Assembly: GCA_963790025.1 (NCBI GenBank) | Contig: CAWBMP010000002.1 | Coordinates: 192,001-256,000 of the forward strand | DNA: 64,000 nt | Direction of reading: 5' to 3' | Origin: Nitrospirota bacterium | GTDB lineage: Bacteria; Nitrospirota; Thermodesulfovibrionia; Thermodesulfovibrionales; Dissulfurispiraceae | Shown: piece after piece, positions 33,830 to 57,501 of the stretch | Position numbering within the stretch: position 1 is the stretch's first letter | How the letters are laid out: every line of letters starts with the position of its first letter | Made by a program: the position numbers and the translations under genes | Notes under the pieces: model-generated | What the model was told of the DNA's origin: nothing | What the model saw: the letters and a program-made list of their open reading frames with translations, nothing else | Database searches by the model: none

Positions 33830-35387
33830 CAGGGTGCTGCTCTCGGGAAACGAGGCGATTGGCAGAGGGGCCATGGAAGCAGGGATTTCCCTTGCCACCA
33901 GCTATGCGGGGACACCGGCCACCGATATCCTGGAGTATTTAGCCCGCAATTTTGCGGGTAATGCCGAGTGGGCCGTAAATGAAAAGGTCGCACTCGAAAC
34001 AGCTATCGGCGCCTCATACGCAAACAAGAGGGTTCTCTGCTCGATGAAACACGTGGGACTCAATGTGGCGGCAGACCCTCTTATGACCGCTTCCTATCTT
34101 GGAATAAAAGGCGGCCTGGTGCTTGCCATAGGTGATGACCCCGGGGCTTATTCTTCACAGAATGAGCAGGATTCGCGCTTCTACGCAAGATTCGCAAAGA
34201 TCCCGTGTCTTGAGCCGAGCGACTCGCAGGAAGCCAAAGACATGACAATCATCGCTTTCGACCTTTCCGAAAAATTTGGACTTCCTGTGATGCTGAGGAC
34301 CCTCACAAGGGTTTCGCATGCTTATTCTCCTGTCCAAATCGGTACTCCCAGAGAAGAAAACCATCTTTCATTGAAAAAAGATCCCGACAGAATGCTGGCA
34401 ATCCCTAAAAACGTGATCAGGCTGCACTCTGCTTTAAACAAAAAATACGATGCATTGCAAGATTGGGTCCTGGAATCGAAGCTCAATAAAATATTCAGGA
34501 GTAAACAGAAAAAAGGCATCATAGCGTGCGGCATCACTTACGCATATGCAAAAGAATACGGCGATGAGTTTGCCTTACTGAAAATCTCCGCTTATCCTGT
34601 CAATGAAAACACAATCAGGAAATTTGTAAGAGGGCTTGATGAGGTTTGGGTCCTTGAGGAGGGCGAGCCGCTCGTCGAAGAAATAACAAGAAAATACTCT
34701 AAAAATGTTAAAGGAAAAATAACCGGGGAACTCGGGGCTGAAGGAGAGCTGGGCCCTGACGCACTCTCAAAACATATTGCAACAGGGACTGCTGAAGGTC
34801 CCCTCCAGGCTTCGGCTGAACCTCTTCCGCTGAGGCCGCCTGTAATGTGTCCCGGCTGCCCTCATCGTGAGTTTTACAGGGCACTGAAGGCTGCCGCCCC
34901 CGCATTCACGACTGGAGATATAGGCTGCTATACGCTTGGTGCAACACCACCTTTAAATGCCCTCGATACCTGTCTCTGCATGGGAGCAAGCATCGGCAAG
35001 GCGGCAGGCATTGCAAAGCAGGGAGTAAAAAGAATTGCTGCGGTCATCGGTGATTCAACATTCATACATTCCGGAATCACCGGGCTTATCAATGCAGTTT
35101 ACAACAAGGCGAACATAACAGTGTTCATTCTGGACAACTCGTCAACCGCGATGACGGGACATCAGCCGACTCCGCTCCTCGGCATTTCAGCAAAAGGGGA
35201 GGAAGCCGGCAAGGTTGATCTCGAAGCACTTTGCAAGGCCTGCGGGGCCAACTCGGTCACTGTAGTTGACCCTTATGACATAGAGACAACGGAAAAAGTG
35301 ATGAGGGAAAAACTGGATGCCGAAGGCGTAAACGTAGTCGTCTCACGCAAGCCCTGCCTCCTGGTATCCAGGAAAATCAAAAAGTAA
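33822..35387 (+). CDS. iorA: Indolepyruvate:ferredoxin oxidoreductase alpha subunit, lacking C-terminal ferredoxin domain
   Basis: GNEAI, SMKHVGLNVAAD, SSQNEQD, RPPVMCPGCPHR, GDIGCY and IGDSTFIHSG; ends at KPCLL. Confidence 0.92.
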   Translation: MTDRVLLSGNEAIGRGAMEAGISLATSYAGTPATDILEYLARNFAGNAEWAVNEKVALETAIGASYANKRVLCSMKHVGLNVAADPLMTASYLGIKGGLVLAIGDDPGAYSSQNEQDSRFYARFAKIPCLEPSDSQEAKDMTIIAFDLSEKFGLPVMLRTLTRVSHAYSPVQIGTPREENHLSLKKDPDRMLAIPKNVIRLHSALNKKYDALQDWVLESKLNKIFRSKQKKGIIACGITYAYAKEYGDEFALLKISAYPVNENTIRKFVRGLDEVWVLEEGEPLVEEITRKYSKNVKGKITGELGAEGELGPDALSKHIATGTAEGPLQASAEPLPLRPPVMCPGCPHREFYRALKAAAPAFTTGDIGCYTLGATPPLNALDTCLCMGASIGKAAGIAKQGVKRIAAVIGDSTFIHSGITGLINAVYNKANITVFILDNSSTAMTGHQPTPLLGISAKGEEAGKVDLEALCKACGANSVTVVDPYDIETTEKVMREKLDAEGVNVVVSRKPCLLVSRKIKK

Positions 35388-35566
35388 AATGCTTGGTTGT
35401 CAACAAAATAGCTGGCGTCCCGGGCCTGGGGCAGGTAAAGCAAAAACCTGTATTGTAAATTCTTTGCCTGTATGATAAATTGAAATCAAGGGAGTCGACA
35501 TAAAGCCCTACTGCCGACGGACATATAAAGAGCAGCGATAAAAACGGCCATGGGGAAAGGAGTGCA

Positions 35567-35830
35567 ATGACAAGCGCAAGAAGTATAAAAGACATGGGAA
35601 ATAATTGCGACGGCGGAGAATTTGACGACCTTAAGGAGATAAAATCGGCGTTTCTTTCGTTTATAGCAAGTCGCGAACAGATGCGGGGGCTTAACAAAAA
35701 AATGTCCGACAGGTTGCATGACCATGTAAACCATGATCATATAAGCCGCATCCGCGATATTGTCGCTACGATTGAATGCAAGCTCAATATTCTAAGCCAG
35801 GGTTGTCCTGAACCTTCAACCCGGCGTTGA
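35567..35830 (+). CDS. Hypothetical protein (87 aa)
   Basis: AGGAG RBS, helical composition, fills the intergenic gap. Confidence 0.45.
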   Translation: MTSARSIKDMGNNCDGGEFDDLKEIKSAFLSFIASREQMRGLNKKMSDRLHDHVNHDHISRIRDIVATIECKLNILSQGCPEPSTRR

Positions 35831-35831
35831 G

Positions 35832-36263
35832 CTACAAATTGTAAAGCTCTTTCGCGGAAAGCACCGTAATGCCGCCGTCTTTAAGGGCTTTAATGGCCCC
35901 ATCGGAGTTCTCGGTGCGTATTACAACCACTGCTTTTTCAGCTGTCTTCTCAACAAAGGCGTACAGATATTCGACATTGATCTGCGCGTCATTCAAGACC
36001 TTCAGCGCGTCGGAAAGTCCGCCGGGCTGGTCCGACACGCCGACGGCGATAACATTATTTTCCCTTACGGTAAAACCGCTTTTCTCAAGGACCTTCTTTG
36101 CCTTGTCCGGCCCTGGGACGATGAGACGCAGTATACCGAATTCAGAAGTGTCGGCAATCGACAGCGCCCGTATATTTATCTTTGCCTTAGCCAGTGCATC
36201 TATAGCTTCGTATAACCTGCCCTTCTTGTTCTCCAGAAAGATTGAAATCTGCTTTACCTTCAT
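35832..36263 (-). CDS. Tandem ACT domain protein
   Basis: QISIFLENKKGRL, INIRALSIADT.EFGILRLIV and D.PGGL..INVEYLYAF. Confidence 0.92.
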   Translation of the reverse strand: MKVKQISIFLENKKGRLYEAIDALAKAKINIRALSIADTSEFGILRLIVPGPDKAKKVLEKSGFTVRENNVIAVGVSDQPGGLSDALKVLNDAQINVEYLYAFVEKTAEKAVVVIRTENSDGAIKALKDGGITVLSAKELYNL

Positions 36264-36274
36264 ATGGCGCTCCT

Positions 36275-37573
36275 TTATAATTGACGCTTGTCGATTACTC
36301 TTTTGGCCTTGCCCTCACTGCGCGGGATGGTCTTTGGTTCTACGAGTGTGACTTTAACCCTCAATCCGATTGCTCTTTCTATGTTCTTCTCCAGCTTTTT
36401 CTTCAACTCTTCAATATGCCTCACCTCGTCGGAGATAAGTTTCTTTGATATCTCGACCTGAACTTCAATCTCATCGAGATGCTGCGGCCGGGTCACGATT
36501 ATCTGATAATGAGGTTCTATGCCCTTAATTTCGAGCAGCGCCTTTTCTATCTTGTAGGGGAATACAATCACGCCCCTGATCTTCAGCATGTCATCGGTAC
36601 GGCCTTGTATGCGGTCCATTCTGATCGTCGTTCTTCCGCACTTGCATTCTTCCCTCCTCAACGCCGTTACGTCTCGCGTTCTGAAGCGGAGCATAGGCAT
36701 GCCTTCGCGGGTCAAGGTAGTAAGCACAAGTTCGCCCTTTTCTCCGTCAGGCAACGGTTCAAGAGTTTCAGGTGATATGACCTCAGGATAAAAATGGTCT
36801 TCATGTATGTGGAGCCCTGTCTTTTCCGGACACTCGTGCGCTACGCCGGGCCCTATTATCTCTGTCAGGCCATAAATGTTCAATGCCAGAATATTGAATC
36901 TCTTCTCTATTTCATCGCGGATTTTTTCGGTCCACATCTCGGCGCCGAAACATCCCGCCTTCAACTTGATCTTTTTGGTATCTACACCCTCTTCTTCCGC
37001 CACTTCGGCCAGATATAGTGAGTACGAGGGCGTGCATGTTATGATCGTAGTACTGAAGTCCTGCATTATCTCCAGCTGTCTTTTGGTATTTCCGGCGGAT
37101 ATCGGAACAACGGTGGCCCCGATCCTCTGTGAGCCATAATGAACGCCAAGCCCGCCGGTGAACATCCCGTATCCGTAACAGTTCTGTATTATATCTTCCT
37201 CGGTCGCTCCGGCCATAGTCAGACAGCGGGCCATCACTTCGCTCCACAGGTCTATGTCACCGCGGGTATATCCGGCCACCACAGGTTTTCCGGTAGTGCC
37301 TGAGGATGTGTGGACCTCGACTATTTCATTGCGGGGTACCGCAAACATGCCGAACGGATAACTCTCGCGGAGATCGGCCTTTGTGGTGAAAGGTATTTTG
37401 GTTATGTCCTTCAGCGTTTTAATGTCTTCAGGTTTGAGTTTAGCTTCGGTGAATTTCTTCTTGAACCAGGGGACATTATCACATGCCCTCCTGACAGCCT
37501 TCCTCAATCTCTCGAGCTGCAACCTCTCCCTCTCCCTGACGGGCATACACTCCGCATGTCTGTCCCAGATCAT
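36275..37573 (-). CDS. paaK: Phenylacetate-CoA ligase family protein (paralog 1)
   Basis: [32 protein letters not shown] and [11 protein letters not shown]. Confidence 0.93.
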
Positions 37574-37583
37574 TTTTCTCTCC

Positions 37584-38012
37584 TTATTTGGCGCCTTTCT
37601 CGCTGTAAAATTTCAGGTCCGTTTTTTTAAGAAGTTGTTTTGCGTTCTCTATGTCCTTGACCTCAACCAGCAGATAGGCCCTCTTCCTGGATTCAGCAAC
37701 ATATACGGATGCATTTTCTATGTTGACGTTATTTTGTGCAAGGACGTGAACCACTTCGTATAATCCTCCAGGCTGGTCCGTCATTTCGATGGCAAGCACT
37801 TCGGTGAGGGAAACCGTAAAACCGGCCTCCTTCAGTTTCTCAAGTGCAAGCTCGGGCTTGTCGACCATGAGCTTGATGATTCCGAATGCATTTGTGCTGG
37901 TAATTGATATGGCAAGAATATTGACTTTAGAATCAGAGAGGACTTTTGTCACTTTTTCCATCTTGCCGAGCTTATTTTCTGCAAATATCGAAATTTGCGT
38001 TACCTTGTCCAT
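37584..38012 (-). CDS. Tandem ACT domain protein (paralog 2)
   Basis: [12 protein letters not shown] and DQPGGL. Confidence 0.9.
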
Positions 38013-38072
38013 AGCCGCTCCCCCTTTTAGGTCTCGTGAAAAAATAATGCTGACTCATTTTTTCGTGAGATA

Positions 38073-39380
38073 TTACAATGTCCTGTTGTCTATGACTCTC
38101 TTTGCCTTCCCCTCACTGACCGGTAGTGTGCCCGGCTCCAAAAGATCCACTTTAGGTTTTACCAGGACAGCAGACCTTATCCTGTCCGTTATCAATTTTT
38201 TCAACTCCAGGAGGTGCTCTATGTTCCCGTCAAACACGCCTCTCGATATCTCAACTCTAATGGTCATGTCGTCATAAGATTCGAGTATGATCTGGTAATT
38301 CTCGGCAACACCCTTGATGCACATCAGCACCTGCTCTATCTGCTGCGGGAATATGTTGACCCCCTTTACGATGAACATGTCGTCAGACCGCCCGATAATG
38401 CGTGATATCCTTCGATGCGTTCTGCCGCATTTGCATTTCCCTTCCACGACTTTTGTAATGTCTCGCGTGCGGTAACGGAGTATAGGCATCGCATCGCGCT
38501 GCAAGGTAGTGAAAACCAGTTCTCCCTCTTCACCTTCCGGGACTTCTTCTCCTGTTTCAGGGTTGATTATTTCCATTAAAAACATATCTTCCCATATGTG
38601 CATTCCGTTTTTCTCGGTGCATTCAAAACCGACGCCCGGGCCGTTCATTTCTGTCAGGCCATATGAGTTGTAAACATCTATGCCGAAGATATTCTCAAGC
38701 TTTCCTCTTGTCTCTTCAGAGTAAGGTTCCGCGCCCAGATATGCCCTCTTGAGTTTCAGTCCTGTCTTAGGATCGATCCCTCTCTTCTGCAGGACTGCTC
38801 CGAGATACAGCGCATAACTTGGTGTTATATGAATGGCTGTAGTGTTGAAATCCTGCATCAGCGCGATCTGCCTGTCCGTATTCCCGGGTCCAGCCGGAAT
38901 CACAAGAGCGCCCAATTTCTCGGCGCCATAATGCATGACAAGGGCCCCTGTAAAAAGACCGTAGGTCATCATGTTCTGCAGTATATCGCCTTTTGTCATT
39001 CCGGTCATTGTAAGGCACCTGGCAATCAGTTGAGCAGAATTGTCTATGTCCTTCCCCGAGAAAAATATCGCCTTTGGCTTGCCGGTGGTGCCGCTTGAGG
39101 TATGAAGCCGCACCACATTGTCCTTCGGAACTGCAAGCATTCCAAAAGGATAGTTCAACCTTAGGTCATCCCTCGTGGTAAATGGAAGTCTTTTGATATC
39201 TTTCAGTGTTTTGATGTCCGATGGTTTGACTTTCAATTCATCAAATCTATCTTTGTAAAATGAGACCTTCCGGTACACATTCCGTACCGTCTTTTGGAGC
39301 TTCTGAAGCTGGAAAGCCTCCAGTGTCCTTCGTCCCATTGTTTCAACCTGCTTTTGCCAGAACATCTTTGTCCCTCTCAT
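38073..39380 (-). CDS. paaK: Phenylacetate-CoA ligase family protein (paralog 2)
   Basis: [21 protein letters not shown] and GRSDDMFIVKGVN. Confidence 0.93.
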   Translation of the reverse strand: MRGTKMFWQKQVETMGRRTLEAFQLQKLQKTVRNVYRKVSFYKDRFDELKVKPSDIKTLKDIKRLPFTTRDDLRLNYPFGMLAVPKDNVVRLHTSSGTTGKPKAIFFSGKDIDNSAQLIARCLTMTGMTKGDILQNMMTYGLFTGALVMHYGAEKLGALVIPAGPGNTDRQIALMQDFNTTAIHITPSYALYLGAVLQKRGIDPKTGLKLKRAYLGAEPYSEETRGKLENIFGIDVYNSYGLTEMNGPGVGFECTEKNGMHIWEDMFLMEIINPETGEEVPEGEEGELVFTTLQRDAMPILRYRTRDITKVVEGKCKCGRTHRRISRIIGRSDDMFIVKGVNIFPQQIEQVLMCIKGVAENYQIILESYDDMTIRVEISRGVFDGNIEHLLELKKLITDRIRSAVLVKPKVDLLEPGTLPVSEGKAKRVIDNRTL

Positions 39381-39952
39381 CTAATCTCTCTGCCTGTTTC
39401 AAATGCCTTTATGTTTATTTCTGTCGTTTTGGCCGGTACCGACTCTTCGATCGCCTTCTGCCAATCCGCCATAGTAAAAGGAAGATAACGGGAGAGGGCA
39501 CCGACGAGAATAATGTTTTCCACCTTGAGGTTGCCCAATTCTTTGGCGATCTCAAGCGCTTTAATCACGTCAACCCGGAATCCCCGGGATTCCATCTTTT
39601 CTTTAATGTTTTCCGGGTACCTGGAGTTTTCAGGGATTATGATGGACGGTGCCACCTGTTTGCTGTTAAGTATCACCTGTGCCGCGGGTCGCAGAAAATA
39701 AGTATATCTGAGTCCTTCAAGTTCTTCGAGGGCGACCATAAAATCGGCCTTGCCCCTTGGAATCAGGGGTGAATAGACCTCTTCACCAAAACGGACATGG
39801 CTGATTACGCTGCCGCCTCTCTGGGCCATCCCGTGAAGCTCGCTCTCTTTAACCATGAAGCCGGCTGTGAATGCACATTTCGCAAGGATTTTGCTGGCCA
39901 AAACAATCCCCTGGCCTCCCACCCCTGCCAACAATATACTTGTAATATTCAC
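39377..39952 (-). CDS. iorB: Indolepyruvate:ferredoxin oxidoreductase beta subunit
   Basis: LAGVGGQG and ELHGMAQRGGSV.SHVRFG. Likely GTG start at 39952. Confidence 0.92.
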   Translation of the reverse strand: MNITSILLAGVGGQGIVLASKILAKCAFTAGFMVKESELHGMAQRGGSVISHVRFGEEVYSPLIPRGKADFMVALEELEGLRYTYFLRPAAQVILNSKQVAPSIIIPENSRYPENIKEKMESRGFRVDVIKALEIAKELGNLKVENIILVGALSRYLPFTMADWQKAIEESVPAKTTEINIKAFETGREIR

Positions 39953-40035
39953 GAGCCGCCCTTTCTGTTGAAAGTTAAAAATAGCTAAAAATTTTATCAC
40001 ACATCCGGGAATTACTGCAACCGGCGTTGGTAGTG

Positions 40036-40243
40036 GGTAGTGGGTCAGTTTGTTTTTGCTCTGGATCACAGTGGTTCTCAGCAGTGGGGTGGTACCGCCC
40101 GCCCCATAAATCGAGAAAGGGGTCCCCGAAAAGTCACAGACTTTTTGGGGTGCAGTTGGGCTCCCAGATAATCTTCAGTACGTGCCGGTGATGGAAACTA
40201 AAGACTATTTGATCCAGAGGGAAAAACAAACTGACCCACTACC
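40036..40243. mobile_element. MITE-like element (208 bp) with ~33-bp terminal inverted repeats
   Basis: GGTAGTGGGTCAGTTTGTTTTTGCTCTGGATCA pairs with TGATCCAGAGGGAAAAACAAACTGACCCACTACC. Internal hairpin CCCCGAAAAGTC...GACTTTTTGGGG. Confidence 0.8.
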
Positions 40244-40257
40244 AACCATCGCGCACA

Positions 40258-40436
40258 TGCAGTAAAACATGGCATAGCCGTCTTTCGGCCAAATAAAACT
40301 ACTATTGTTCCAGTCAAAACATTTAATTGTAGACTAGTACGCAATAATCACAGCGTTGGGGCTCGGCGTCACTCGCCCCCGCTACAGCAGACCCGTGATA
40401 TTTTGCCGAAAGACGGCTATGCCATGTTCTGCTGCA
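40258..40436. repeat. REP/REPIN- or MITE-like element with ~38-bp inverted repeats
   Basis: TGCAGTAAAACATGGCATAGCCGTCTTTCGGCCAAATA pairs with TATTTTGCCGAAAGACGGCTATGCCATGTTCTGCTGCA. Confidence 0.75.
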
Positions 40437-40561
40437 GCGGTATGTGCTTTATTGATCTAGTATATTGTTTTTATAGCTGAAAATTTGCTATCTTATGATG
40501 CTCATAGAGGCATTGGATACTTTTTCATTATAAATATAGTTATGGAACAAAGGGGGGTCAA

Positions 40562-41719
40562 ATGAAAAGAGTTACAACAGTGTTTTTTGCACTGACCGGA
40601 TTTCTTTTATCGTTGTTAGTTACAGGGAGCACATATGCCGCAGAGCCCTACAAGGTCGGTGCGGTTTTTTCCGTGACAGGAGCGGCTTCTTTTCTGGGTG
40701 AGCCCGAGAAGAATACGGCCCTGCTGCTGCAGGACCAGATCAATAAGGCCGGAGGCATAAACGGCCATCCGCTTGAGATCATCATTGAGGACTCAAAGAG
40801 TGATGAAACTCAGGCCGTGCTTTCCGCCAAAAAACTCATCGAAAGAGATAAAGTGCTTGCCATCATCGGGCCCTCAACCACAGGAGAGTCAATGGCCCTC
40901 GTGCCTATAATGAACAGTGCCCAGACTCCTCTTATTTCGTGTGCGGCAGGAGCAGGCATAACCCAGCCTGTTGAAGAAAGATACTGGATATTCAAAACTG
41001 CTCAATACGATACCAGCGCTGTTGAGGCGATCTATACATACATGAAAAAGCATGGCATCTCAAAGATCGGCATTATCACTATATCAACCGGGTTCGGCGA
41101 TGCCGGGAAAAAAGCCCTCCTCGAAACAGCTTCCAGATACGGCATTAAAATAGTCGCTGATGAAAAATACGGACCAAAAGATTCCGATATGACAACCCAG
41201 CTTGTAAAGATTAAGGCAACGGGTGCCCAGGCGATTATAAACTGGTCTGTGGGCCCCGGTCAGGTGATCGTAACGAAAAACTGGCAATCATTAAAGATGG
41301 GAATCCCTCTTTATCAGAGCCATGGATGGGGAAGCAGGAAGAACATCGAACTTGCCGGCAAGGCATCTGAGGGAGTTATCTCTCCTCTTGGCAGGCTCGT
41401 TGTATGGGAGAAGATGCCGGTCACGCATCCCCAGTACAACCTGCTGAAAAAATTTACCGTGGATTATGAGGCCAGGTTTAAAGGAGAACCGGGTACATTT
41501 GGCGGACATGCATACGATGCGGTCATGATAATAGAAAAGGCAATTAAGAATGCCGGGGGAGACAAAAAGAAGATCAGGGACTATATTGAAGCCAAAATAA
41601 AAAAATGGCCGGGTGCAGGGGGTATCTTCAACATGTCTCCTAAGGACCACTGCGGCCTCGACAAGACAGCATTTGAAATGGTGGTTGTCAAGAACGGAGA
41701 TTGGGAAATATTGAAGTGA
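40562..41719 (+). CDS. livK: Liv-type ABC transporter substrate-binding protein (aromatic-acid type)
   Basis: Signal peptide, TGAASFLGEPE, GGINGHPLE and DHCGL. Confidence 0.9.
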   Translation: MKRVTTVFFALTGFLLSLLVTGSTYAAEPYKVGAVFSVTGAASFLGEPEKNTALLLQDQINKAGGINGHPLEIIIEDSKSDETQAVLSAKKLIERDKVLAIIGPSTTGESMALVPIMNSAQTPLISCAAGAGITQPVEERYWIFKTAQYDTSAVEAIYTYMKKHGISKIGIITISTGFGDAGKKALLETASRYGIKIVADEKYGPKDSDMTTQLVKIKATGAQAIINWSVGPGQVIVTKNWQSLKMGIPLYQSHGWGSRKNIELAGKASEGVISPLGRLVVWEKMPVTHPQYNLLKKFTVDYEARFKGEPGTFGGHAYDAVMIIEKAIKNAGGDKKKIRDYIEAKIKKWPGAGGIFNMSPKDHCGLDKTAFEMVVVKNGDWEILK

Positions 41720-41729
41720 GCTTGATCAT

Positions 41730-42617
41730 TTGCTGACCGTTTTTTTGCAGTTTCTTTTTTCAGGCCTCACCGTCGGGGCAGTTTACGCCCTGGTCGGCAC
41801 GGGGTTTAATATCATTTACAATGCCACCTCTATCATCAACCTGGCCCAGGGAGAATTTGTCGTAATAGGCGGCCTGATGATGTGGTTCTTCACGGAATCT
41901 GTAAAACTGCCTTTCTTAGTCTCAATTCTTCTCACCATCCTCACGGCTGGACTTGTAGGGCTTCTGATGGAGAGGCTGACAATAAGGCCCCTGAAAAAAA
42001 CAGACCTCCTTCTCATGATAATGATCACTATCTCCGTCTCAATTGTTTTGCGGGGAATCCTCATGTTCAAGTTCGGGAAGGACACCTATTCTTACGATCC
42101 ATTTACAGAGGGTGAGCCGATCAGCATATGCGGCGCAATCATCCAGCAGCAGACGTTGTGGGTCATCAGCGTGACGGCTTTATGCATAGTCCTGCTGTTC
42201 CTCTTCTTCAGCAAAACGTTAATTGGCAAAGCGATGAAGGCGTGCTCGGTGGACCCCACTGCAGCGAGGCTGGTCGGAATAAATGTATCTCAGATGGTAA
42301 TGCTTTCGTTCATTTTCAGCGCCATGGTGGGCGCCATAGGCGGAATAGCAATAACTCCCATTTCGTTGATGCAATACGACAACGGGCCCATGCTCGCCGT
42401 AAAGGGCTTCTGCGCCGCAATAATGGGAGGACTGGGAAGAGGCAGGGGTGCGGTCCTCGGCGGATTTCTGATCGGCATCCTGGAATCCATGACAGCCGGA
42501 TATCTGAATTCCGGGTTGAAAGACGCAGTCGCGCTCATAATACTCCTGCTGGTACTTTTCTTCAGGCCTTCCGGTATTTTAGGGAGCAGTGCCGCGGCCC
42601 GGCTGAGAAAGTTTTGA
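41730..42617 (+). CDS. livH: Liv-type ABC transporter permease
   Basis: GAVYALV..GF.IIY....INLAQGE and KGFCAAIMGGLG. Confidence 0.92.
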   Translation: MLTVFLQFLFSGLTVGAVYALVGTGFNIIYNATSIINLAQGEFVVIGGLMMWFFTESVKLPFLVSILLTILTAGLVGLLMERLTIRPLKKTDLLLMIMITISVSIVLRGILMFKFGKDTYSYDPFTEGEPISICGAIIQQQTLWVISVTALCIVLLFLFFSKTLIGKAMKACSVDPTAARLVGINVSQMVMLSFIFSAMVGAIGGIAITPISLMQYDNGPMLAVKGFCAAIMGGLGRGRGAVLGGFLIGILESMTAGYLNSGLKDAVALIILLLVLFFRPSGILGSSAAARLRKF

Positions 42618-42619
42618 CC

Positions 42620-43570
42620 ATGGACAGATCGAACTCATTGGCGATGCTGATTTTCGTGCTTCTTATTGTCTCTCTGCCCTTCCTGGCAGGAAGCAGCTAT
42701 ACATTAACGGTCGGTATTTTTTCGGGAATCAACGCGCTCGTTGCAATCGGACTCTGTATCCTGATGGGATTTGCCGGCCAGATATCTCTTGGACAGGCAG
42801 GCTTCTACGGCATAGGGGCTTATGTATCATCCATCTTAAGCGCACATTACGGCTTGCCGGTCATAACGAGTCTTGCTCTCGGAATGTTGGCTGCTGCGCT
42901 GGCTGCGGTCGTTCTGGCTGTCCCATCTTTAAGGTTGCAGGGCCATTATCTTGCAGTTGCGACACTCGGATTCGGTGAGATAGTTCAAATTGCCCTGAAC
43001 GAATGGGGACCGGGCGGTCCCTCCGGATTCGGTGACATACCCCAGTTCGGCATTTTCGGACACACCCTCAAAACAACAGCAGGTTATTTCTATCTCATCT
43101 GGTTGATCGTCGCTGCGATTTTGACCTTTTCTTTGAACCTTATGAACTCGAGAAGCGGCAGGGCCTTGAAGGCGATCCACGGCAGCGAGCTTGCAAGTAA
43201 CGCGATGGGACTGGACGTAGTTACGCTTAAGATCAAGGTGTTTGTACTCAGTGCAGTCTATGCTGCGCTTGCAGGCGGCCTTTACGCGCATTACATTACA
43301 TTTATAAGCCCCGGCAGCTTTTCATTTTTCTATTCAATTCTGGTGTTGATGATGGTCGTTGTTGGCGGGATTACAAATCTGTGGGGCGGTATAATCGGCG
43401 CCATAGCTATAACGATACTGCCGGAGCTTTTAAGACAATTCGAAGAATTCGATGTGCTTGCATATGGCCTGATACTGACACTCTCGCTGCTGTTCTTAAG
43501 AAAGGGCATCGTCCCGCTTCTAATTGATAAATTCAAAAAATTTAGGGGAGTTACAGTTGCTCGAAGTTAA
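42620..43570 (+). CDS. livM: Liv-type ABC transporter permease
   Basis: GFAGQISLGQAGFYGIGAY and RLQGHYLAVATLGFGE. Start ATG 42620. Confidence 0.92.
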   Translation: MDRSNSLAMLIFVLLIVSLPFLAGSSYTLTVGIFSGINALVAIGLCILMGFAGQISLGQAGFYGIGAYVSSILSAHYGLPVITSLALGMLAAALAAVVLAVPSLRLQGHYLAVATLGFGEIVQIALNEWGPGGPSGFGDIPQFGIFGHTLKTTAGYFYLIWLIVAAILTFSLNLMNSRSGRALKAIHGSELASNAMGLDVVTLKIKVFVLSAVYAALAGGLYAHYITFISPGSFSFFYSILVLMMVVVGGITNLWGGIIGAIAITILPELLRQFEEFDVLAYGLILTLSLLFLRKGIVPLLIDKFKKFRGVTVARS

Positions 43571-44307
43571 AAAGATGACAAAGTATTTCGGAGGGCTGAG
43601 GGCCCTGAATAACGTGAGTTTAAGTGCCACGGAAAACTCTATCAGCGCTCTTATCGGCCCGAATGGCGCAGGGAAAACGACCCTCTTGAATATCATCACC
43701 GGCATGTATGCTGCGGACAAGGGAGAGGTTTTTTTCTCGGGCATCGACATAAGCAGTCTGTCTACTCTCACGAGATCAAGGCAGGGCATCTCGCGGACTT
43801 TTCAGCATCTGGAATTGTTCGGAGAGATGACAGCACTGGAAAACATCATGGTCGGCAGATATTCAAAGACAAAAGCGGGTTTCATCTCTTCAGGACTAAG
43901 GCTGCCTTTTGTTATAAGGGAAGAGAAGGAGGCAAGACGCAGGAGCGAAGAGATCCTTGAATATGTCAATCTGGGCCACAGGATAAACGACATTGCATCA
44001 AATCTTCCTGCAGGAGAGCAAAGGACACTCGAAATCGGGAGGGCACTTGCAACGGAGCCAAGGCTTCTTCTGCTCGATGAGCCCGCTGCTGGATTGAACA
44101 TCAAAGAGACCCGCAGTCTTGGCGAGATGCTAAAAAAGATGCGCTATGAAATGGACATAACTATTGTCCTTGTCGAACATGACATGGACCTTGTAATGCA
44201 TATAAGCGACAGGATAACCGTTCTGAATTTCGGGGAGGCAATAGCAGAAGGCACTCCACCGGAAATCCAGAAAAACAAAGCAGTAATAGAAGCATATCTC
44301 GGGGTCG

Positions 44308-44318
<11 letters not shown>
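43557..44318 (+). CDS. livG: Liv-type ABC transporter ATPase
   Basis: GPNGAGKTT, LLLDEPAAG and VEHDM. Confidence 0.93.
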
Positions 44319-45120
<802 letters not shown>

Positions 45121-45160
45121 AGGGTAGAGTCCTGCTTCAAACAATTACAAGGAGGGTGCT

Positions 45161-46459
45161 ATGTACTGGGAAGCCGTGAAGGAGTGCATGTCGAGGGAGG
45201 AACTCGAACAGTTGCAGCTTGAGCGTTTGCAGTCAACGCTTTTCAGGGTATATATGAACGTACCTTTTTATAAAAAGAAATTTGATGAACTTTCAATAGA
45301 TCCCGACGGTATCCGTTCTCTGGAAGACCTTCAAAGACTTCCCTTCACCACCAAGGATGATCTGAGAGAGAGCTATCCCTATGGCATGTTTGCTGTGCCT
45401 TTAAGGGAAGTTGTCAGGGTGCAGGCTTCATCGGGGACAACGGGAACGCCAACAGTAGTCGGCTATACGAGCAACGATATAAAAAACTGGTCCAATCTCG
45501 CAGCCAGGATACTCACCGCCGGGGGAGTTACGCAGAATGACATCGTCCAGATTGCCTTCGACTACGGCCTTTTTACCGGAGCGTTGGGCCTTCACTATGG
45601 TGCGGAAAGGTTGGGGGCATCGGTCATACCGATATCAAGCGGCAATACCAAGCGGCAGGTCAAAATAATGGAGGATTTCAAGACAACGGCACTCATGTGT
45701 ACACCCGGCTATGCCCTTGCCATTGCGGATACGATAATCGAAATGGGAATAAACGTGAACTCTTTTTCACTGAGATACGGTCTTTTCGGCGCTGAACCAT
45801 GGTCTGAAGGGCTTCGCCGTGAACTTCAGGAAAAGCTCAAAATAATTGCAACCGACAATTACGGACTTAGCGAAGTCATGGGCCCGGGTGTTGCCGGTGA
45901 ATGCCTCGAGCGCAACGGCCTTCACATCAACGAAGACCATTTCCTGGTGGAAGTGGTCGACCCCGAGACGCTTACTCCCCTTCCTCCCGGTAAAACGGGG
46001 GAGTTGGTCATCACTTCGCTCACTAAAGAGGCCTTCCCGGTGATCCGGTACAGGACAAGAGACCTCACAAGCCTTATAGCAGGGCCCTGCCCTTGCGGCA
46101 GGACATTAGTCAGAATGGGCAAGGTGATGGGCAGGACAGACGACATGATAAAAATAAAGGGAATCAATGTATTTCCCTCCCAGATTGAGTCTGTGCTTTT
46201 CGAGATCGAAGGCGCTGAGCCGCACTATCAGATCACAGTGGACCGCAAAGGTCCTGTTGATGAACTGACCGTGTCCTTCGAAGTATCGGAATCCATCTTT
46301 TCCGACCAGATGGAAAACCTGGGGGAATTCATTGGGACTGTGAAAGCGAGGCTGGCAACAGAACTCGGCATCCCTGTGGAGGTTATGCCGGTGGAAAAAA
46401 ATACTATTGACAGGTCAGAGGGTAAGGCCCGGCGCGTAATAGACAAGCGAAGAATTTAA
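45161..46459 (+). CDS. paaK: Phenylacetate-CoA ligase family protein (paralog 3)
   Basis: ASSGTTGTP, YGLSEVMGPGV and GRTDDMIKIKG. Confidence 0.93.
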   Translation: MYWEAVKECMSREELEQLQLERLQSTLFRVYMNVPFYKKKFDELSIDPDGIRSLEDLQRLPFTTKDDLRESYPYGMFAVPLREVVRVQASSGTTGTPTVVGYTSNDIKNWSNLAARILTAGGVTQNDIVQIAFDYGLFTGALGLHYGAERLGASVIPISSGNTKRQVKIMEDFKTTALMCTPGYALAIADTIIEMGINVNSFSLRYGLFGAEPWSEGLRRELQEKLKIIATDNYGLSEVMGPGVAGECLERNGLHINEDHFLVEVVDPETLTPLPPGKTGELVITSLTKEAFPVIRYRTRDLTSLIAGPCPCGRTLVRMGKVMGRTDDMIKIKGINVFPSQIESVLFEIEGAEPHYQITVDRKGPVDELTVSFEVSESIFSDQMENLGEFIGTVKARLATELGIPVEVMPVEKNTIDRSEGKARRVIDKRRI

Positions 46460-49372: not shown

Positions 49373-49618
49373 TCAAGCGCTTCCACTTTTCCGCGCTGCC
49401 TTATGACATTTAAAGCATTCGAATTTGGGAGGATGGGTCCTTTTAAGTGCGTTTTTTTTGCCGGGACCATGACATTCCATGCACGCTGTGCTGTTGCTGA
49501 CCTCAAGAGCCTTGTGAACGTTGTCGCCGGGGACTTGTGGATAACGTTTTCCCGAAATAGAGTATAAGACTGATACGATAATGAGCACGAAAATTATAAA
49601 CATGATTGTGCTTTTCAT
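49373..49618 (-). CDS. Small membrane-anchored diheme c-type cytochrome
   Basis: N-terminal hydrophobic helix, CMECH and CFKCH. Confidence 0.85.
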   Translation of the reverse strand: MKSTIMFIIFVLIIVSVLYSISGKRYPQVPGDNVHKALEVSNSTACMECHGPGKKNALKRTHPPKFECFKCHKAARKSGSA

Positions 49619-49747
49619 ATGAGAATTGTACCATACTTTTTTAAAACAGCTGAGAGCTAATTTCGTATAGGTAAGTTATTATGTCTATCAATTAATACTT
49701 TTTCCCCGAAATTAAGAAGAATCTCTAATCTGTCGCGAACTCGAATC

Positions 49748-49775
49748 TTGACAACGTACCGGATAATGATAACAT
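49748..49775 (+). promoter_or_regulatory. Putative sigma70 promoter for the sbtA-like ORF (TTGACA-16-TAACAT, extended -10 TG)
   Basis: TTGACA at 49748-49753 and TGATAACAT at 49767-49775. Confidence 0.5.
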
Positions 49776-49857
49776 TTGAGTATATGCATGATTTCTTGGT
49801 TGGAAGTTTCTTCGACGTAACAGAAAGAGTTGCGGCACATAGGGAAGGAGGTTTATT

Positions 49858-50058
49858 ATGGATTCAGCGGATTTGAAAAGGATTCTTGCGGGTTTCAGCA
49901 TCGCTGTCCTGCTCAGTTCTGCTATTGCTCTTTCAGGTTGTTCATCGAGTTGATCCGGGTCCAAAAAAGAGGGTGCCGGGAGCACCCAGAAGGAGCAGTC
50001 TGAACAAAAGCCAGGAGAAAAACCAGGTCAGAGCGGCTGAAGCGGTTCAAAGAAATAG
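49858..50058 (+). CDS. sbtA: SbtA-like selenobiotic / thio(seleno)oxazole RiPP precursor with two Sec: MDSADLKRILAGFSIAVLLSSAIALSGCSSSUSGSKKEGAGSTQKEQSEQKPGEKPGQSGUSGSKK
   Basis: RBS AGGAGG and a family-typical leader (DLK+ILAG.SIA.L). In-frame TGA at 49951 and 50038, both in an S-x-U-S-G-S-K-K context and each followed by a hairpin. TAG at 50056. Confidence 0.8.
49971..49987 (+). promoter_or_regulatory. SECIS-like hairpin 1, GGGTGC-CGGGA-GCACCC
   Basis: 6-bp stem 17 nt after UGA 49951 with a G-containing loop. Confidence 0.65.
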
Positions 50059-50072
50059 TGCCGTAGGCACTA
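50056..50072 (+). promoter_or_regulatory. SECIS-like hairpin 2, TAGTGCC-GTA-GGCACTA
   Basis: 7-bp stem 15 nt after UGA 50038 with a GU loop. Confidence 0.65.
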
Positions 50073-50116
50073 CGGAAAATGTGGTACCAAGCATGTTCAT
50101 TGTTAAGAGAGGCCGG

Positions 50117-50884
50117 CTAAAGAGATTGGATGACCCGGGGGCTGAACAGTGAATCTGATAAATCAGGATTCAGAGAATAGCTACTGATGACTGTCCGGGC
50201 TATTTCCAAACCTTGGGCATAATTGGTAATCCGGAAGGGAAAGAGAGAGCCGCCGACTTTTTTAAAGTCCGCGAATTCGGAAGAGAGGTATGCCTTTTTA
50301 TTTCCTGCGCTAAAAAACCCGGTAACTTTTATGATTACAGCATTGCGATCACTGATATAAAGATCCATGACCGTACCCTCCTTGTCATGCAGTTCTAAAA
50401 CCTCAACAGCGGTATCATTTACCATAGATTTTCCTGCAGACTGTATCTGGTAAGCCCCTTCTATGAGACCATGGAGTATGTCCAGGTGCTTATATTGATA
50501 TACTATCGAAAAGTATCGCGGGCCATCCACTTCTTCCATGGGAAGCGAGTCTGTGCCCCTGTATGCCTTGTCCCCAACCAGGATCCTGAATTCAGATGAC
50601 CGTTCGTATTTTGTTTCTACGCGGAGTTTTCTTTCTCTTTTAAAGTAAAGCTCATATGTCCCGCTGTCGTGGAGCATAAGTGCTTCGATCTCCCCCTTTA
50701 CATGGAGGGAATGTATTCCTTCGATAACCGCTTTCCCGCCATAGGCAGCGATTACTTTATTGATGACGGCGCCTATCCTTTGGGCCTCATCGGGCGCTTC
50801 TGCCGAACAAACTCCTTCCGGTCCCGTGATGAAAAAGATGTAAATAAAAAAAACCAGGAAAATACGTATCGGCAAATGTCTCAT
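50117..50884 (-). CDS. Exported hypothetical protein (LolA-like/outer-membrane sorting fold suspected)
   Basis: Signal peptide, VIAAYGG, FADFKKVGG.LFPF and NPDL.DSLF pattern. Confidence 0.7.
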   Translation of the reverse strand: MRHLPIRIFLVFFIYIFFITGPEGVCSAEAPDEAQRIGAVINKVIAAYGGKAVIEGIHSLHVKGEIEALMLHDSGTYELYFKRERKLRVETKYERSSEFRILVGDKAYRGTDSLPMEEVDGPRYFSIVYQYKHLDILHGLIEGAYQIQSAGKSMVNDTAVEVLELHDKEGTVMDLYISDRNAVIIKVTGFFSAGNKKAYLSSEFADFKKVGGSLFPFRITNYAQGLEIARTVISSYSLNPDLSDSLFSPRVIQSL

Positions 50885-53810: not shown

Positions 53811-55118
53811 TTAGTATGTCCTTGTGTCGAAGACTCTCCTGGTTTTCTTTTCGGTCCGGGGCAGGCTGCCGTAAGGCAGGATCTCAACCGTGCCGGACAC
53901 CATAAGTTGGTGCTTCAATTTTTTTGAGATTATTTCGGCGAGACCTTCGTCGGCGCTATGATGGATATTCACATCCCTTTCCACCTTCAGCGTCATGTAG
54001 TCCCTGCCGTCTGAACAGTGTTCGAGATGGACCTGGTACTCGCTTCCGACTCCCTTGACGCCCGAAAATACCTCGTCTATCTGCCCCGGGTAAACATTTA
54101 CGCCCCTGAAGATGAACATGTCATCAGACCTCCCAAGTATTTTGTCATGCCGCGGCAGGAGGCAGCCGCAGGGGCAGTCGTCCGGGACAAGCCTCGTCAG
54201 GTCCCTTGAACGGTAGCGGATGAGGGGGGAGCCTTCTTTGCAAAGAGTGGTAAAGACCATCTCACCGATCTCGCCCGGTCCGACGGGTTTCAAAGTCTCC
54301 GGGTTCAGGATTTCGAGGATGTAGAAGTCGGCCCAGTAATGGATGCCGTCATTGTATTTACAGCTCAGGCCGGTACCTGGGCCGTACAGCTCGGTCAGAC
54401 CGGTAATGTCGTAGACCTCTTCTATTTTGAGGAGTTCCTTTATCTTCTTTATCATGGCGCTGCTGGTCCGCTCGGCGCCGAGTATGATCTTTTTGAGATT
54501 GATCTTGTCCCGCAGGTTCCGGCGATGGACCTCCTCTGCCAACAGCAATGCCATGGAAGCTGTAGAACATACAACTGTAGTCTGCATATCGACCATAAAG
54601 GTACACTGCAGCTCCATATTGCCGGGACCTATAGGTATGGTAAGTGCCCCAAACTTCTCGCAGCCGAGCTGGAACCCGGCGCCTGCTGTCCACAACCCAT
54701 AGCCCACGCATATCTGCACCCTGTCTTCGCGGGTCACACCCGCCAATTCGTAACACCTCCCGAACATATATGCCCAATCGTCTATGTCCTTCTGCGTATA
54801 GGAGAGGATTTTCCTTTTACCGGTCGTTCCGGAAGAGGAATGCAACCTGACGATTTCGGTGAAATCAACCGCCCTCAGAGGAAACGGGTATTCGTTCCTC
54901 AGGTCTTCGGCTGTAGTGAAGGGCAACCTCTCAATGTCCTCAATCTGCTCAATATCTTCAGGCCTCACGCCTGCCGAATCAAGACGTCCCCTATAAAATT
55001 CCGAGCGGTGATAGGCGTGTGATACAGTCCATTGCAGGCCTTTCAACTGGTGCGTCTTTAAACCTTCCGGCATCCCTGCCCTGGGCGGGAACCTCTTGAG
55101 TGTAGATCCGTTATTCAT
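53811..55118 (-). CDS. paaK: Phenylacetate-CoA ligase family protein (paralog 4)
   Basis: HSSSGTTGKRK, GLTELYGPG and GRSDDMFIFRGVN. Confidence 0.92.
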   Translation of the reverse strand: MNNGSTLKRFPPRAGMPEGLKTHQLKGLQWTVSHAYHRSEFYRGRLDSAGVRPEDIEQIEDIERLPFTTAEDLRNEYPFPLRAVDFTEIVRLHSSSGTTGKRKILSYTQKDIDDWAYMFGRCYELAGVTREDRVQICVGYGLWTAGAGFQLGCEKFGALTIPIGPGNMELQCTFMVDMQTTVVCSTASMALLLAEEVHRRNLRDKINLKKIILGAERTSSAMIKKIKELLKIEEVYDITGLTELYGPGTGLSCKYNDGIHYWADFYILEILNPETLKPVGPGEIGEMVFTTLCKEGSPLIRYRSRDLTRLVPDDCPCGCLLPRHDKILGRSDDMFIFRGVNVYPGQIDEVFSGVKGVGSEYQVHLEHCSDGRDYMTLKVERDVNIHHSADEGLAEIISKKLKHQLMVSGTVEILPYGSLPRTEKKTRRVFDTRTY

Positions 55119-55687
55119 ATATTCACCTTTTCGCCGCGAAGCACACCGAGGTCAAATGCCGACATGGATGCCTTCAGGAGTTTGTCACGGTCAGCAAGTT
55201 TTTGATGGAGTATTGCCCTGATATCTTCAGGGTCGCAGAAGGCTTGCTTGCCGGTCCTGCCGAGGGCCGAGAGTGCGAAGCCTATAAGAATGAGGTTCAC
55301 AGACCCCGGCTGATGAACTTCCTTTGCCAATGCGTCAGCATCTATACAGAGCACTTTCCCGTTCCCGGTCCCCTCGGGTCGTGAAAGTGCATTAACAACG
55401 ACAACCCCACTTGGATTAAGGTAAAAAAGATGGCTCCGCAGGTTTTCCTCTTTCAGCAGCAGGAGGACATCGGCCTTGGCCGGCCTGATCAGGGGGCTTG
55501 TAAATCCGCCAACTTTCAGGTGTGAAACAACGATACCTCCACGTTGAGCCATACCGTGGGTTTCTGCGGTCAAAACGGGATATCCCCTGTAAATGGCGGC
55601 CCCGGCCAGGACACGTGTGATGAACAAGATGCCTTGCCCGCCAACCCCACTAACTATGATCTGCTGTCGTTCAGAAGGGGCGTTCAC
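55115..55687 (-). CDS. iorB: Indolepyruvate:ferredoxin oxidoreductase beta subunit (copy 2)
   Basis: SGVGGQG and ETHGMAQRGG.V.SH. The GTG start overlaps the iorA stop. Confidence 0.9.
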   Translation of the reverse strand: MNAPSERQQIIVSGVGGQGILFITRVLAGAAIYRGYPVLTAETHGMAQRGGIVVSHLKVGGFTSPLIRPAKADVLLLLKEENLRSHLFYLNPSGVVVVNALSRPEGTGNGKVLCIDADALAKEVHQPGSVNLILIGFALSALGRTGKQAFCDPEDIRAILHQKLADRDKLLKASMSAFDLGVLRGEKVNI

Positions 55688-57501
55688 TCCATCTCCACCT
55701 TTTTGATCGCCTTTCTGGGACAGACATGGATACATATCCCGCAGCCGCTGCACACGAGTTGATTGATCCTCGCCTGCTTGCCGCTTTCATCATATTCGAT
55801 GGCAGGGCATTCGAATTGTTTTATGCAATAAGAGCAGCCATCGCATGATGAAGATATGTCGACATCGATGCGCTCACTCTTCGCTTCTTTCGCCCGTTTA
55901 TCCACGAGGCATGGATGACGTGAAATCACCACTGCCAGGCCTTTGTCCTTTGCGTATCTGCGCGCCGACCTGAGGAGCCTTGTAAACGCTGACATATTGT
56001 AAGGATCTCCCACACGGCAGAACTTGACGCCGCAGCTCTTGACGATCCCCTCTATCGAAATCTTCACAAGCGGATTGCCGCAGGCGTCTATTCCCGTTGC
56101 GGGGGTAGGCTGATTACCGGTCATAGCGGTTGTGGAGTTGTCAAGCACCACCAGGACAAATCGTGCGTCCTGCACAACCGCGTCCATGAGCGCCGGGACC
56201 CCGGCATGGAAAAATGTGGCGTCACCGATAGTGGCTACAATATCCGTGTCCTTGCCGCCTAATCTGAATGCTTGATAAAAACCCGCTGCCTGGCTGATCG
56301 AGGCGCCCATGCAGAGCGCGGTGTCTATAGCACCCAGGTTCAGACCAAGTGTGTAACAGCCTATGTCACTCGTGTAAATGGCGCCGGGGACTGCCTTTTT
56401 GATCGCAAAGAAACTCGCACGGTGCGGGCATCCTGCGCAGAGGCTGGGTCGCCTGCCGCCCTCAGAGGTGCTCTTTAACTCAGTTTTTGCAACGGAGCAG
56501 AAAATCGATATGGTCCCTTCGATGATTTCCGGCAACAACTCACCGGACCCCGGAATGAAGCCGTTTAAACGGCCCCTTACCTTATTCCTGTCCGCTATCT
56601 GCATTTCCATAACAGGTGCGCTTTCTTCGATCACCAGAATATCTTCGTACCTGTCCAGGACATCTTTTATAAACCCGGAATGCAGAGGGAACGGCTGTAG
56701 GACCTGATAGACGGCAACCTTATTCAAGATACCAAGATCGGACATAATCTCCTGCACATGGGCAGCCGCAACGCCAGAGGTTACGATGGCCTTTGAAGAG
56801 ACAATGCCTGGATTTAGAAGACGCGGTTTGGTAAGATCGTGGGCAGCCAGCGCCGCCAGTTTTTCATTCAGCTTGGTGTGGAGTATGTAGCGATACCTTG
56901 GGGTTGCAGCCCATCTGGCAGGGTCTTTTTTAAAGGCCGCAGTACGATCAGTAAGCTTCACCTCTTCAAGCTCAATATCCTGCCCGCCATGGCAGACTCT
57001 TGTGGTCGGCCTTAGCATCACAGGCACCTCGAATTCCTCTGAAAGTTCATAGGCAAGACCCACAAACTCCTTTGCCTGCTCCGGTCCGGCAGGGTCCAGG
57101 ACAGGCACTTTGGCAAACATTGCCATCAATCGGCTGTCCTGTTCCGTCTGCGAGGAGTGCGGCCCCGGGTCGTCAGCACTGATGACAATGAAACCGCCCT
57201 TTGCGCCCATGTAGGCGGCACTCATAAGCGGGTCGGAAGCAACATTGAGACCCACCTGCTTCATACTTACTGCAGTGCGAAGCCCGGCGATGCTGCCGGC
57301 ATAGGCTATCTCAAACGCAATCTTTTCGTTTACAGCCCATTGGGCATGAATAGGCAAGGAGAGTTCAGCTTTCCATTTGACAATTGCCGGGAGGATCTCC
57401 GAGGCCGGGGTGCCCGGGTAGGAAAGGGCCATGGAACAGCCGTTTTCCACAAGTCCTCGAGCTATGGCCTCATTGCCGATCATTAGAATGCGATTATTCA
57501 C
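55684..57501 (-). CDS. iorA: Indolepyruvate:ferredoxin oxidoreductase alpha subunit (copy 2) with C-terminal 2x[4Fe-4S] domain
   Basis: GNEAIARG, CAGCPHR, DIGCY, CDGCSYC...CP and CSGCGICIHVCP. Confidence 0.93.
   Translation of the reverse strand: MNNRILMIGNEAIARGLVENGCSMALSYPGTPASEILPAIVKWKAELSLPIHAQWAVNEKIAFEIAYAGSIAGLRTAVSMKQVGLNVASDPLMSAAYMGAKGGFIVISADDPGPHSSQTEQDSRLMAMFAKVPVLDPAGPEQAKEFVGLAYELSEEFEVPVMLRPTTRVCHGGQDIELEEVKLTDRTAAFKKDPARWAATPRYRYILHTKLNEKLAALAAHDLTKPRLLNPGIVSSKAIVTSGVAAAHVQEIMSDLGILNKVAVYQVLQPFPLHSGFIKDVLDRYEDILVIEESAPVMEMQIADRNKVRGRLNGFIPGSGELLPEIIEGTISIFCSVAKTELKSTSEGGRRPSLCAGCPHRASFFAIKKAVPGAIYTSDIGCYTLGLNLGAIDTALCMGASISQAAGFYQAFRLGGKDTDIVATIGDATFFHAGVPALMDAVVQDARFVLVVLDNSTTAMTGNQPTPATGIDACGNPLVKISIEGIVKSCGVKFCRVGDPYNMSAFTRLLRSARRYAKDKGLAVVISRHPCLVDKRAKEAKSERIDVDISSSCDGCSYCIKQFECPAIEYDESGKQARINQLVCSGCGICIHVCPRKAIKKVEME

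Follow-up and report, generated by a model that had tools for sequence, protein, structure and literature searches.

An overlooked SbtA-like gene with two predicted selenocysteines, a lipoprotein-type leader and no maturase gene nearby

A short reading frame in the 64-kb window (the whole stretch of DNA that was analysed) is crossed twice by in-frame TGA, is not called as a gene and has no maturase gene beside it. The question is whether this is a gene, whether both TGA codons are read as selenocysteine (Sec), and what could become of such a peptide where its usual modifying enzyme is missing from the neighbourhood. About 49.8 kb of the window precede the gene and 13.9 kb follow it.

The frame runs from an ATG at 49858 to a TAG at 50056-50058 and comprises 66 codons plus TAG, with no frameshift and no premature TAA or TAG. 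With the two TGA codons read as Sec (U) the product is MDSADLKRILAGFSIAVLLSSAIALSGCSSSUSGSKKEGAGSTQKEQSEQKPGEKPGQSGUSGSKK. The initial annotation had described an uncalled 66-codon ORF with TGA twice before SGSKK, a leader ending in LSGC and a hairpin 15-17 nt after each TGA. Translation bears out the first two points, with TGA at codons 32 and 61 and L-S-G-C at residues 25-28 (the Cys28 codon is TGT at 49939-41), and the hairpins begin 17 and 15 nt after the first and second TGA and are matched by an independent RNA model, as described below. The 15 nt coding for SGSKK differ between the two copies at five positions, all five synonymous, which is the mark of selection on a peptide translated downstream of both 'stops'. 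The left edge given in the initial annotation, 49748, is the TTGACA of a promoter-like site and the ORF itself starts at 49858; the site is a consensus match only and weak alone, the whole scan giving one site where 1.8 are expected from shuffles. The features are collected in Table 1.

The gene went uncalled because under translation table 11 its frame amounts only to an ORF of 31 codons, which looks shorter than one of 88 codons in another frame. No Pfam family was found at E <= 1 for the alternative-frame ORFs 49886-50152 (+), 49830-50003 (+) and 49725-49985 (-).

Table 1. Positions of the selenopeptide gene and its signals in the window
Feature	Position	Strand	Basis or remark
SbtA-like selenopeptide CDS	49858..50058	+	Translation, TIGR04081, alignments
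Leader, predicted lipoprotein-type signal peptide, residues 1-28	49858..49941	+	K7, R8; I9-L25 hydrophobic; L-S-G-C
UGA1, predicted Sec32, core S-S-S-U-S-G-S-K-K	49951..49953	+	Invariant Cys column in alignment A1
UGA2, predicted Sec61, core Q-S-G-U-S-G-S-K-K	50038..50040	+	Invariant Cys column in alignment A1
SECIS 1, stem GGGUGC/GCACCC, loop CGGGA	49971..49987	+	Fold and covariance model R1; also codes G-A-G-S-T
SECIS 2, stem UAGUGC/GCACUA, loop CGUAG	50056..50072	+	Fold and covariance model R1; starts on TAG and runs into the 3' untranslated region
Shine-Dalgarno AGGAGG	49846..49851	+	6 nt 5' of ATG, direct read
Promoter-like site TTGACA-16-TAACAT, TG before -10	49748..49775	+	10/12 consensus matches

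Both hairpins have a 6-bp stem, and the distance from UGA to the loop is 23 nt for SECIS 1 and 21 nt for SECIS 2. The rules for bSECIS elements in the legend of Fig. 2 of PMC13188914 give a loop of 3-9 nt, a stem of 4-16 bp, a G in loop positions 1-2, 16-37 nt from UGA to loop and an energy of -7.5 kcal/mol or lower. As far as that legend defines the element, the two window hairpins agree with it in loop (5 nt), stem, G (loop position 2), spacing and energy. Folded as 29 nt, SECIS 1 has -11.1 kcal/mol (z -3.04, 1 of 200 shuffles as good) and SECIS 2 has -9.1 kcal/mol (z -2.95, 3 of 200), and in 45-nt folds z is only -0.39 and -1.83, respectively. The folding energies alone are modest, and it is the comparative evidence that decides on the hairpins.

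For this comparison 11 loci were obtained from one profile scan of genome contigs with the family alignment. Ten of them encode leader-plus-core peptides, eight of these with in-frame TGA at a total of 19 sites; the eleventh, L011, resembles the leader by chance, has no core and was rejected. With the window included, all 21 TGA sites are followed 15-18 nt later by a hairpin with the consensus GGUGC-[CA]G[GU]NN-GCACC. The hairpin is in register at 19 of the 21 sites, and the two offset sites (L004_U3 and L005_U2) were counted as unpaired in the helix statistics. In the 21-row alignment the paired share of helix cells is 90.5%; shuffles give 78.1 +/- 1.8, and 0 of 500 come up to the observed value. 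Changes on both sides occur in 19 cells, where shuffles have 4.8 (again 0 of 500). Controls with the register slid gave 23-47% paired. Two other covariation measures were not significant, namely both-side-changed pairs (97 of 500 shuffles) and further pair types (79 of 500).

A covariance model, R1, was built from 17 UGA-plus-hairpin sites outside the window, with the two offset sites dropped and no window sequence included. In the window its only significant matches are 49951-49998, with 36.5 bits (E 1.6e-6), and 50038-50083, with 31.9 bits (E 1.7e-5); of the 32 matches listed over 128 kb of strand, the next best reaches 12.3 bits (E 0.49). At the C-terminal cores (the second of the window, that of L008, the fourth of L009 and the fifth of L010) the hairpin overlaps the stop codon or follows it. 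Coding constraint is thus no explanation, and the hairpin is an RNA element. Inside the frame, SECIS 1 (GGU GCC GGG AGC ACC) reads G-A-G-S-T, and internal cores of L003, L006, L009 and L010 are followed likewise, with G-A-V-S-T as a variant in L009 and L010. The recurrence of G-A-G-S-T after internal cores appears to be dictated by the SECIS RNA element.

Nine Cys-type homologs (P0002-P0010), each with three to six T-S-C-S-G-x-K cores, were found by word-based searches. Both Sec correspond to Cys in nine of nine, and the G two residues after each U is also invariant. Homologs with TAA or TAG at the Sec positions, proposed at the outset as evidence against readthrough, were not encountered; the positions hold TGA or a Cys codon instead. 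The nine homologs are labelled PF27804.1 in the protein collection, and a Pfam search of P0002 found no family. Because each UGA is followed by a SelB-type SECIS common to the SbtA family, insertion of Sec at residues 32 and 61 is strongly supported as a prediction, as is the reality of a gene that is translated through both UGA codons.

The same hairpins might also be taken as intrinsic terminators of the convergent gene 50117-50884 (-), the TGA at codon 32 then being the true stop of a 31-residue ORF. Both are flagged as terminator-like on the minus strand (GGGTGCTCCCGGCACCC + TCTTTTTTGG and GTAGTGCCTACGGCACTAT + TTCTTTGAAC), and three such sites were found against 1.0 expected. However, the same hairpin follows UGA in eight other genomes, and in seven of these the downstream gene is a co-directional sbtM (none in L003), so there is no convergent gene needing a terminator there. 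The minus-strand T-run is the A-rich spacer of Lys and Glu codons, as in the family consensus, the 31-residue product would consist of a signal peptide and three mature residues, and the Cys homologs continue through both positions. An origin of the hairpins as terminators is highly improbable on these grounds.

Profile searches found no selA, selB or selD in the 64-kb window, and the tRNA scan of the window gave 0 genes, hence no tRNA-Sec there. Rfam at gathering thresholds gave 0 matches in the whole window; there is no curated family for this SECIS. Other selenoprotein genes were sought in the window with a scan for TGA-bridged ORFs that have a stable fold downstream (77 sites, 14 listed), and none was convincing or had the family hairpin.

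The peptide matches TIGR04081, the NCBIfam model 'SbtA family thio(seleno)oxazole RiPP natural product precursor', with 28.7 bits and E 7.8e-7, residues 1-23 aligning with profile positions 1-22 of 27. The curated cutoff is 30.5 bits, so the equivalog threshold is missed by 1.8 bits while the homology is significant. Of the 12 peptides scanned it has the lowest score, and it alone falls short of the cutoff, the other 11 scoring 38.7-51.1 bits (P0002 50 bits, the ten locus peptides 38.7-51.1 bits). The leader was also scored with a 19-column HMM built without the window, where it reached 31.0 bits, above 93 of the 150 best representatives, so the window leader is ordinary for the wider family. 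The family-invariant leader residues M1, L6, K7, I9, A11 and L18 are all kept. The family identity proposed initially stands, in that the TIGR04081 homology, leader, cores and SECIS type all fit, and by sequence homology the window peptide is an SbtA homolog.

The SbtA family is large. A profile search of 1.84 billion representatives gave 300 matches (clusters at 50% identity) at E <= 0.001 and 15 at E <= 1e-10. The closest locus peptide is that of L004, from a Desulfobulbaceae MAG, with 60% identity over residues 1-34 (...LTGC-ASA-U-SGDKAGAGSS, compared with ...LSGC-SSS-U-SGSKKEGAGST in the window). Both window cores have the context [SG]-[CU]-[SGT]-G. Ser-Sec, Ala-Sec and Ser-Cys cores adjoin sbtM, the maturase gene, in L007, L008, L004 and L001, so Gly before Sec is not required and a Ser-Sec core is acceptable. 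The eight related loci with TGA encode 1, 1, 1, 2, 2, 3, 4 and 5 Sec. A table in the review PMC13188914 lists TIGR04081 with 2 Sec, and the relevant text of PMC9204691 gives 'at least two SeCys'. Five representatives (P0034, P0067, P0107, P0111 and P0139) have Trp in place of Sec or Cys, for example S-G-W-G-G and S-A-W-A-G. These were most likely called under a code with TGA=Trp, so database copies of the SbtA family may hide Sec as W.

Bacterial lipoproteins are recognised by a basic n-region, a hydrophobic h-region and a lipobox, [LVI][ASTVI][GAS]C. The window peptide fits this signal peptidase II substrate pattern (K7/R8, I9-L25, LSGC). The Pfam model LPAM_1 matches it weakly (E 0.72), and weak matches to lipoprotein-family N-termini range from E 0.0078 to 0.24. 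A lipobox-like [GAS]-C at the end of the hydrophobic stretch is present in 7 of the 10 locus peptides, a lipobox-like Cys occurs in 124 of the best 150 representatives, the other 26 resembling signal peptidase I substrates, and the lipobox Cys is invariant in the alignment with the nine Cys-type homologs. Many representatives have a length of 32-40 residues and stop 3-10 residues past this Cys, which is expected of calls truncated at the first UGA. Seven of the best 150 end exactly three residues past it, matching C-x-x-x-U, which is C-S-S-S-U in the window and C-A-S-A-U in L004. That residues 1-28 are the conserved SbtA leader and a lipoprotein signal peptide at once is a strongly supported prediction, and the locus can be described as a small gene, absent from the annotation, whose product, with two Sec, would be secreted and probably lipid-anchored. 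A link between SbtA and lipoproteins was not found in the literature covered on SbtM, selenobiotics and TIGR04081; the word 'lipoprotein' has 0 occurrences in each of PMC13188914 and PMC12538549.

The initial annotation had regarded the duplicated core, the lipobox and the lack of an adjacent sbtM as unusual. The first two do not stand: relatives carry 1-5 Sec or 3-6 Cys cores, and by the counts above the lipobox is the family norm. The third is borne out, and of the features called unusual only the missing neighbouring maturase sets the window gene apart. No sbtM adjoins it or occurs anywhere in the 64-kb window, as judged with the TIGR04082 profile and tblastn with six SbtM proteins. By comparison, sbtM follows the peptide gene immediately and in the same orientation in L001, L004, L006, L007, L008 and L010 (TIGR04082 665-745 bits, cutoff 350), and tblastn places it downstream in L005 and L009 also, so that eight of the nine informative related loci have it directly behind the peptide gene. 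L003 is the informative locus without sbtM; L002 is uninformative because its contig ends 479 nt past the peptide. With this arrangement in the relatives, a maturase acting in trans would be an exception. Within the 64-kb window the orphan status is genuine and atypical, and the trivial answer, a maturase elsewhere in the genome, may apply.

One radical SAM gene in the window was considered as SbtM and rejected. This rSAM/SPASM gene, 25720-26808 (+), is 24 kb away and scores 133.9 bits on TIGR04082 against the cutoff of 350. It holds the sole tblastn match to SbtM (25786-26799, 27-31% identity, from about SbtM residue 191 on), aligns with the C-terminal two-thirds of SbtM and lacks roughly the first 200 profile positions. 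The protein, with 362 residues, is best matched by AhbD-like (181 bits) and NirJ2-like (178 bits) models, with cutoffs of 500, and is under every NCBIfam equivalog cutoff. The gene is located between two small ORFs and a YceI-family gene.

When 10 window neighbours were compared with the 11 loci, generic rSAM similarity was the only likeness found. The divergent upstream neighbour, 49373-49618 (-), is separated from the selenopeptide gene by 239 nt, in surrounding 300-nt windows of 35-38% GC. Its product of 81 residues has a hydrophobic stretch at the N-terminus and two CxxCH motifs and looks like a small membrane-anchored dihaem cytochrome c. The convergent neighbour, 50117-50884 (-), ends 58 nt from the selenopeptide stop and encodes 255 residues. 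The N-terminus of this protein is hydrophobic and resembles a signal peptide, and LolA_like (PF17131) matches the protein weakly, under the cutoff, at E 0.0022. The position of a LolA-like, that is lipoprotein-carrier-like, gene next to that of a putative lipoprotein is suggestive, and it does not recur in the related loci.

A second apparent orphan is the gene in L003, from a Rokubacteria MAG (L003:10001-10303, +). Its peptide combines a leader of SbtA type (44.8 bits) with a single A-A-U-S-G core, which is followed by the family SECIS, and lacks a lipobox Cys; the tail of about 60 residues is weakly similar to a region of the DegP family (E 0.0025, far under cutoff) that was read as the PDZ part. 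The 20-kb locus has no SbtM match.

The absence of sbtM could mean that Sec is inserted but the peptide works without SbtM, as a free-standing di-selenol lipoprotein for redox or metal handling in which the SbtA-type signal peptide and the U-SG module form a self-sufficient unit. Such a use would agree with a window of 64 kb without sbtM and with a TIGR04081 score that is the lowest of the peptides scanned, and L003, with its leader, single U-SG core, SECIS and PDZ-like tail, is a possible precedent. The leader, however, keeps all family invariants and exceeds 93 of 150 representatives on the independent leader HMM. Conservation of this degree goes beyond the needs of a generic signal peptide and speaks for a partner that still recognises the leader, and the absence of sbtM holds for 64 kb of the genome only. 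An SbtM-free function is rather unlikely.

The gene could also be a decaying relic, a duplicated or displaced copy of sbtA that is no longer expressed or matured. It is apart from any sbtM, shares no synteny with the 11 related loci and scores under the TIGR04081 cutoff, which speaks for decay. Against it, the start codon, AGGAGG, both UGA contexts and both SECIS are intact, the two SECIS score high, the coding frame is free of frameshifts and premature TAA or TAG, and the repeat differences are synonymous only. A relic is improbable.

The preferred reading, with a probability of about 0.6, is an exported, lipid-anchored peptide whose two Sec would be converted to selenooxazoles by an SbtM encoded elsewhere; soft-metal binding is a speculative addition. 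Maturation by SbtM is proposed because no invariant residue of the leader is lost, although a signal peptide alone would not call for them all. The radical SAM maturase, encoded outside the window, would recognise the leader and oxidise Ser31-Sec32 and Gly60-Sec61 to 5-selenooxazoles in the cytoplasm. The modified peptide would then be exported by the Sec pathway and acylated at Cys28, and signal peptidase II would cleave it. The predicted product is a hydrophilic lipopeptide of 39 residues, C-S-S-S-U...S-G-U-S-G-S-K-K, tethered to a membrane on the periplasmic side. By analogy with copper-binding 5-thiooxazole peptides, its two exocyclic selenols may bind soft metals such as Cu(I), which is speculative. 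Export, lipidation and heterocycle formation are all predictions of this scheme.

The chemistry has a basis in published work. SbtM turns Gly-Cys/Sec into a thio(seleno)oxazole that is still alkylatable, according to section 5 of PMC9204691. The relevant text of PMC12668002 describes Cu binding by 5-thiooxazole peptides and counts the SbtM product among the 5-thiooxazole compounds; passages of PMC12668002 and PMC12538549 group this product with 5-thiooxazole peptides spectroscopically. In the literature covered, the final form and function of the SbtM product are called unknown. A more general proposal is put forward tentatively: the SbtA leader may be a working lipoprotein signal peptide, and SbtA products may as a rule be membrane-anchored lipopeptides and not diffusible 'selenobiotics'. 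The orphan, matured in trans or not at all, would then give a lipopeptide of 39 residues with two selenooxazole or selenol groups that buffers soft metals or redox state in the periplasm.

Standard gene callers do not see this gene, and with it the selenoproteome of the organism gains an entry with two Sec. At the level of the family, the SbtA peptides form a large group that mostly bears a lipobox and has one shared SECIS type that appears to dictate G-A-G-S-T; the family-wide lipobox and the shared SECIS model are useful by-products of the analysis. If the peptides are lipid-anchored, the SbtM product should be sought in the membrane fraction rather than in the culture supernatant. The orphan copy lends itself as a natural test between SbtM acting in trans and a Sec module that works without modification. 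If the more general proposal above is true, the product of the orphan would be a selenium-based counterpart, made by a radical SAM enzyme, of the copper-binding thiooxazole peptides.

Two other observations were made in the window. A dense set of aryl-acid genes at 33804-46459 and 53811-57501 comprises four PaaK-like phenylacetate-CoA ligase paralogs, two IOR alpha genes, one IOR beta gene, an ACT-domain protein, PaaI and a Liv-type ABC transporter; the IOR alpha gene at 33804-35387 covers profile positions 2-539 of 595 only. The 97-residue ORF at 15938-16231 (+) matches only the N-terminal ~80 positions of DnaB-type helicases (E 4.5e-12, phage DnaB model) and looks like a gene fragment.

Among known systems the nearest is SbtA (TIGR04081) with SbtM (TIGR04082), named 'selenobiotic' or 'selenobacteriocin'. 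The window peptide shares the leader M-D-x-x-D-L-K-[KR]-I-L-A-G-F-S-I-A, the multiple [SG]-U-[SG]-G cores, a SECIS 15-18 nt after UGA and the lipobox Cys of most members. It differs in having no sbtM in 64 kb, whereas eight of nine informative loci have one, and in an HMM score 1.8 bits under the curated cutoff. Its cores differ too, being S-U-S-G and G-U-S-G in place of the GGUG and SGUG quoted for SbtA in passages of PMC9204691 and PMC13188914. Within the family, L004 has the same order of lipobox, three residues and U-SG-x-K-x-GAGS, and several Sec with a SECIS after each, but there are three Sec and an sbtM directly downstream (665 bits) in L004, against two Sec and no sbtM in the window.

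The 'captophorins' (bufferins, fontiphorin and oxazolin) are made by MNIO enzymes, which are unrelated to the radical SAM maturase, and bind copper; the window peptide differs from them further in having selenium for sulfur and a lipobox. Bufferin precursors carry Sec signal peptides. The likeness would lie in a 5-thio- or 5-selenooxazole with an expected free chalcogenol and in repeated cores within a hydrophilic peptide, by analogy with the captophorins as presented in the relevant text of PMC12668002. Metal binding by SbtA products is not reported in the literature covered. With regard to decoding, the gene resembles the fdhF paradigm in its UGA followed by a hairpin, a G near the 5' side of the loop, a spacing of 21-23 nt and the existence of Cys homologs, and it departs from that paradigm in having two Sec in 66 codons and a second SECIS that spans the stop into the 3' untranslated region.
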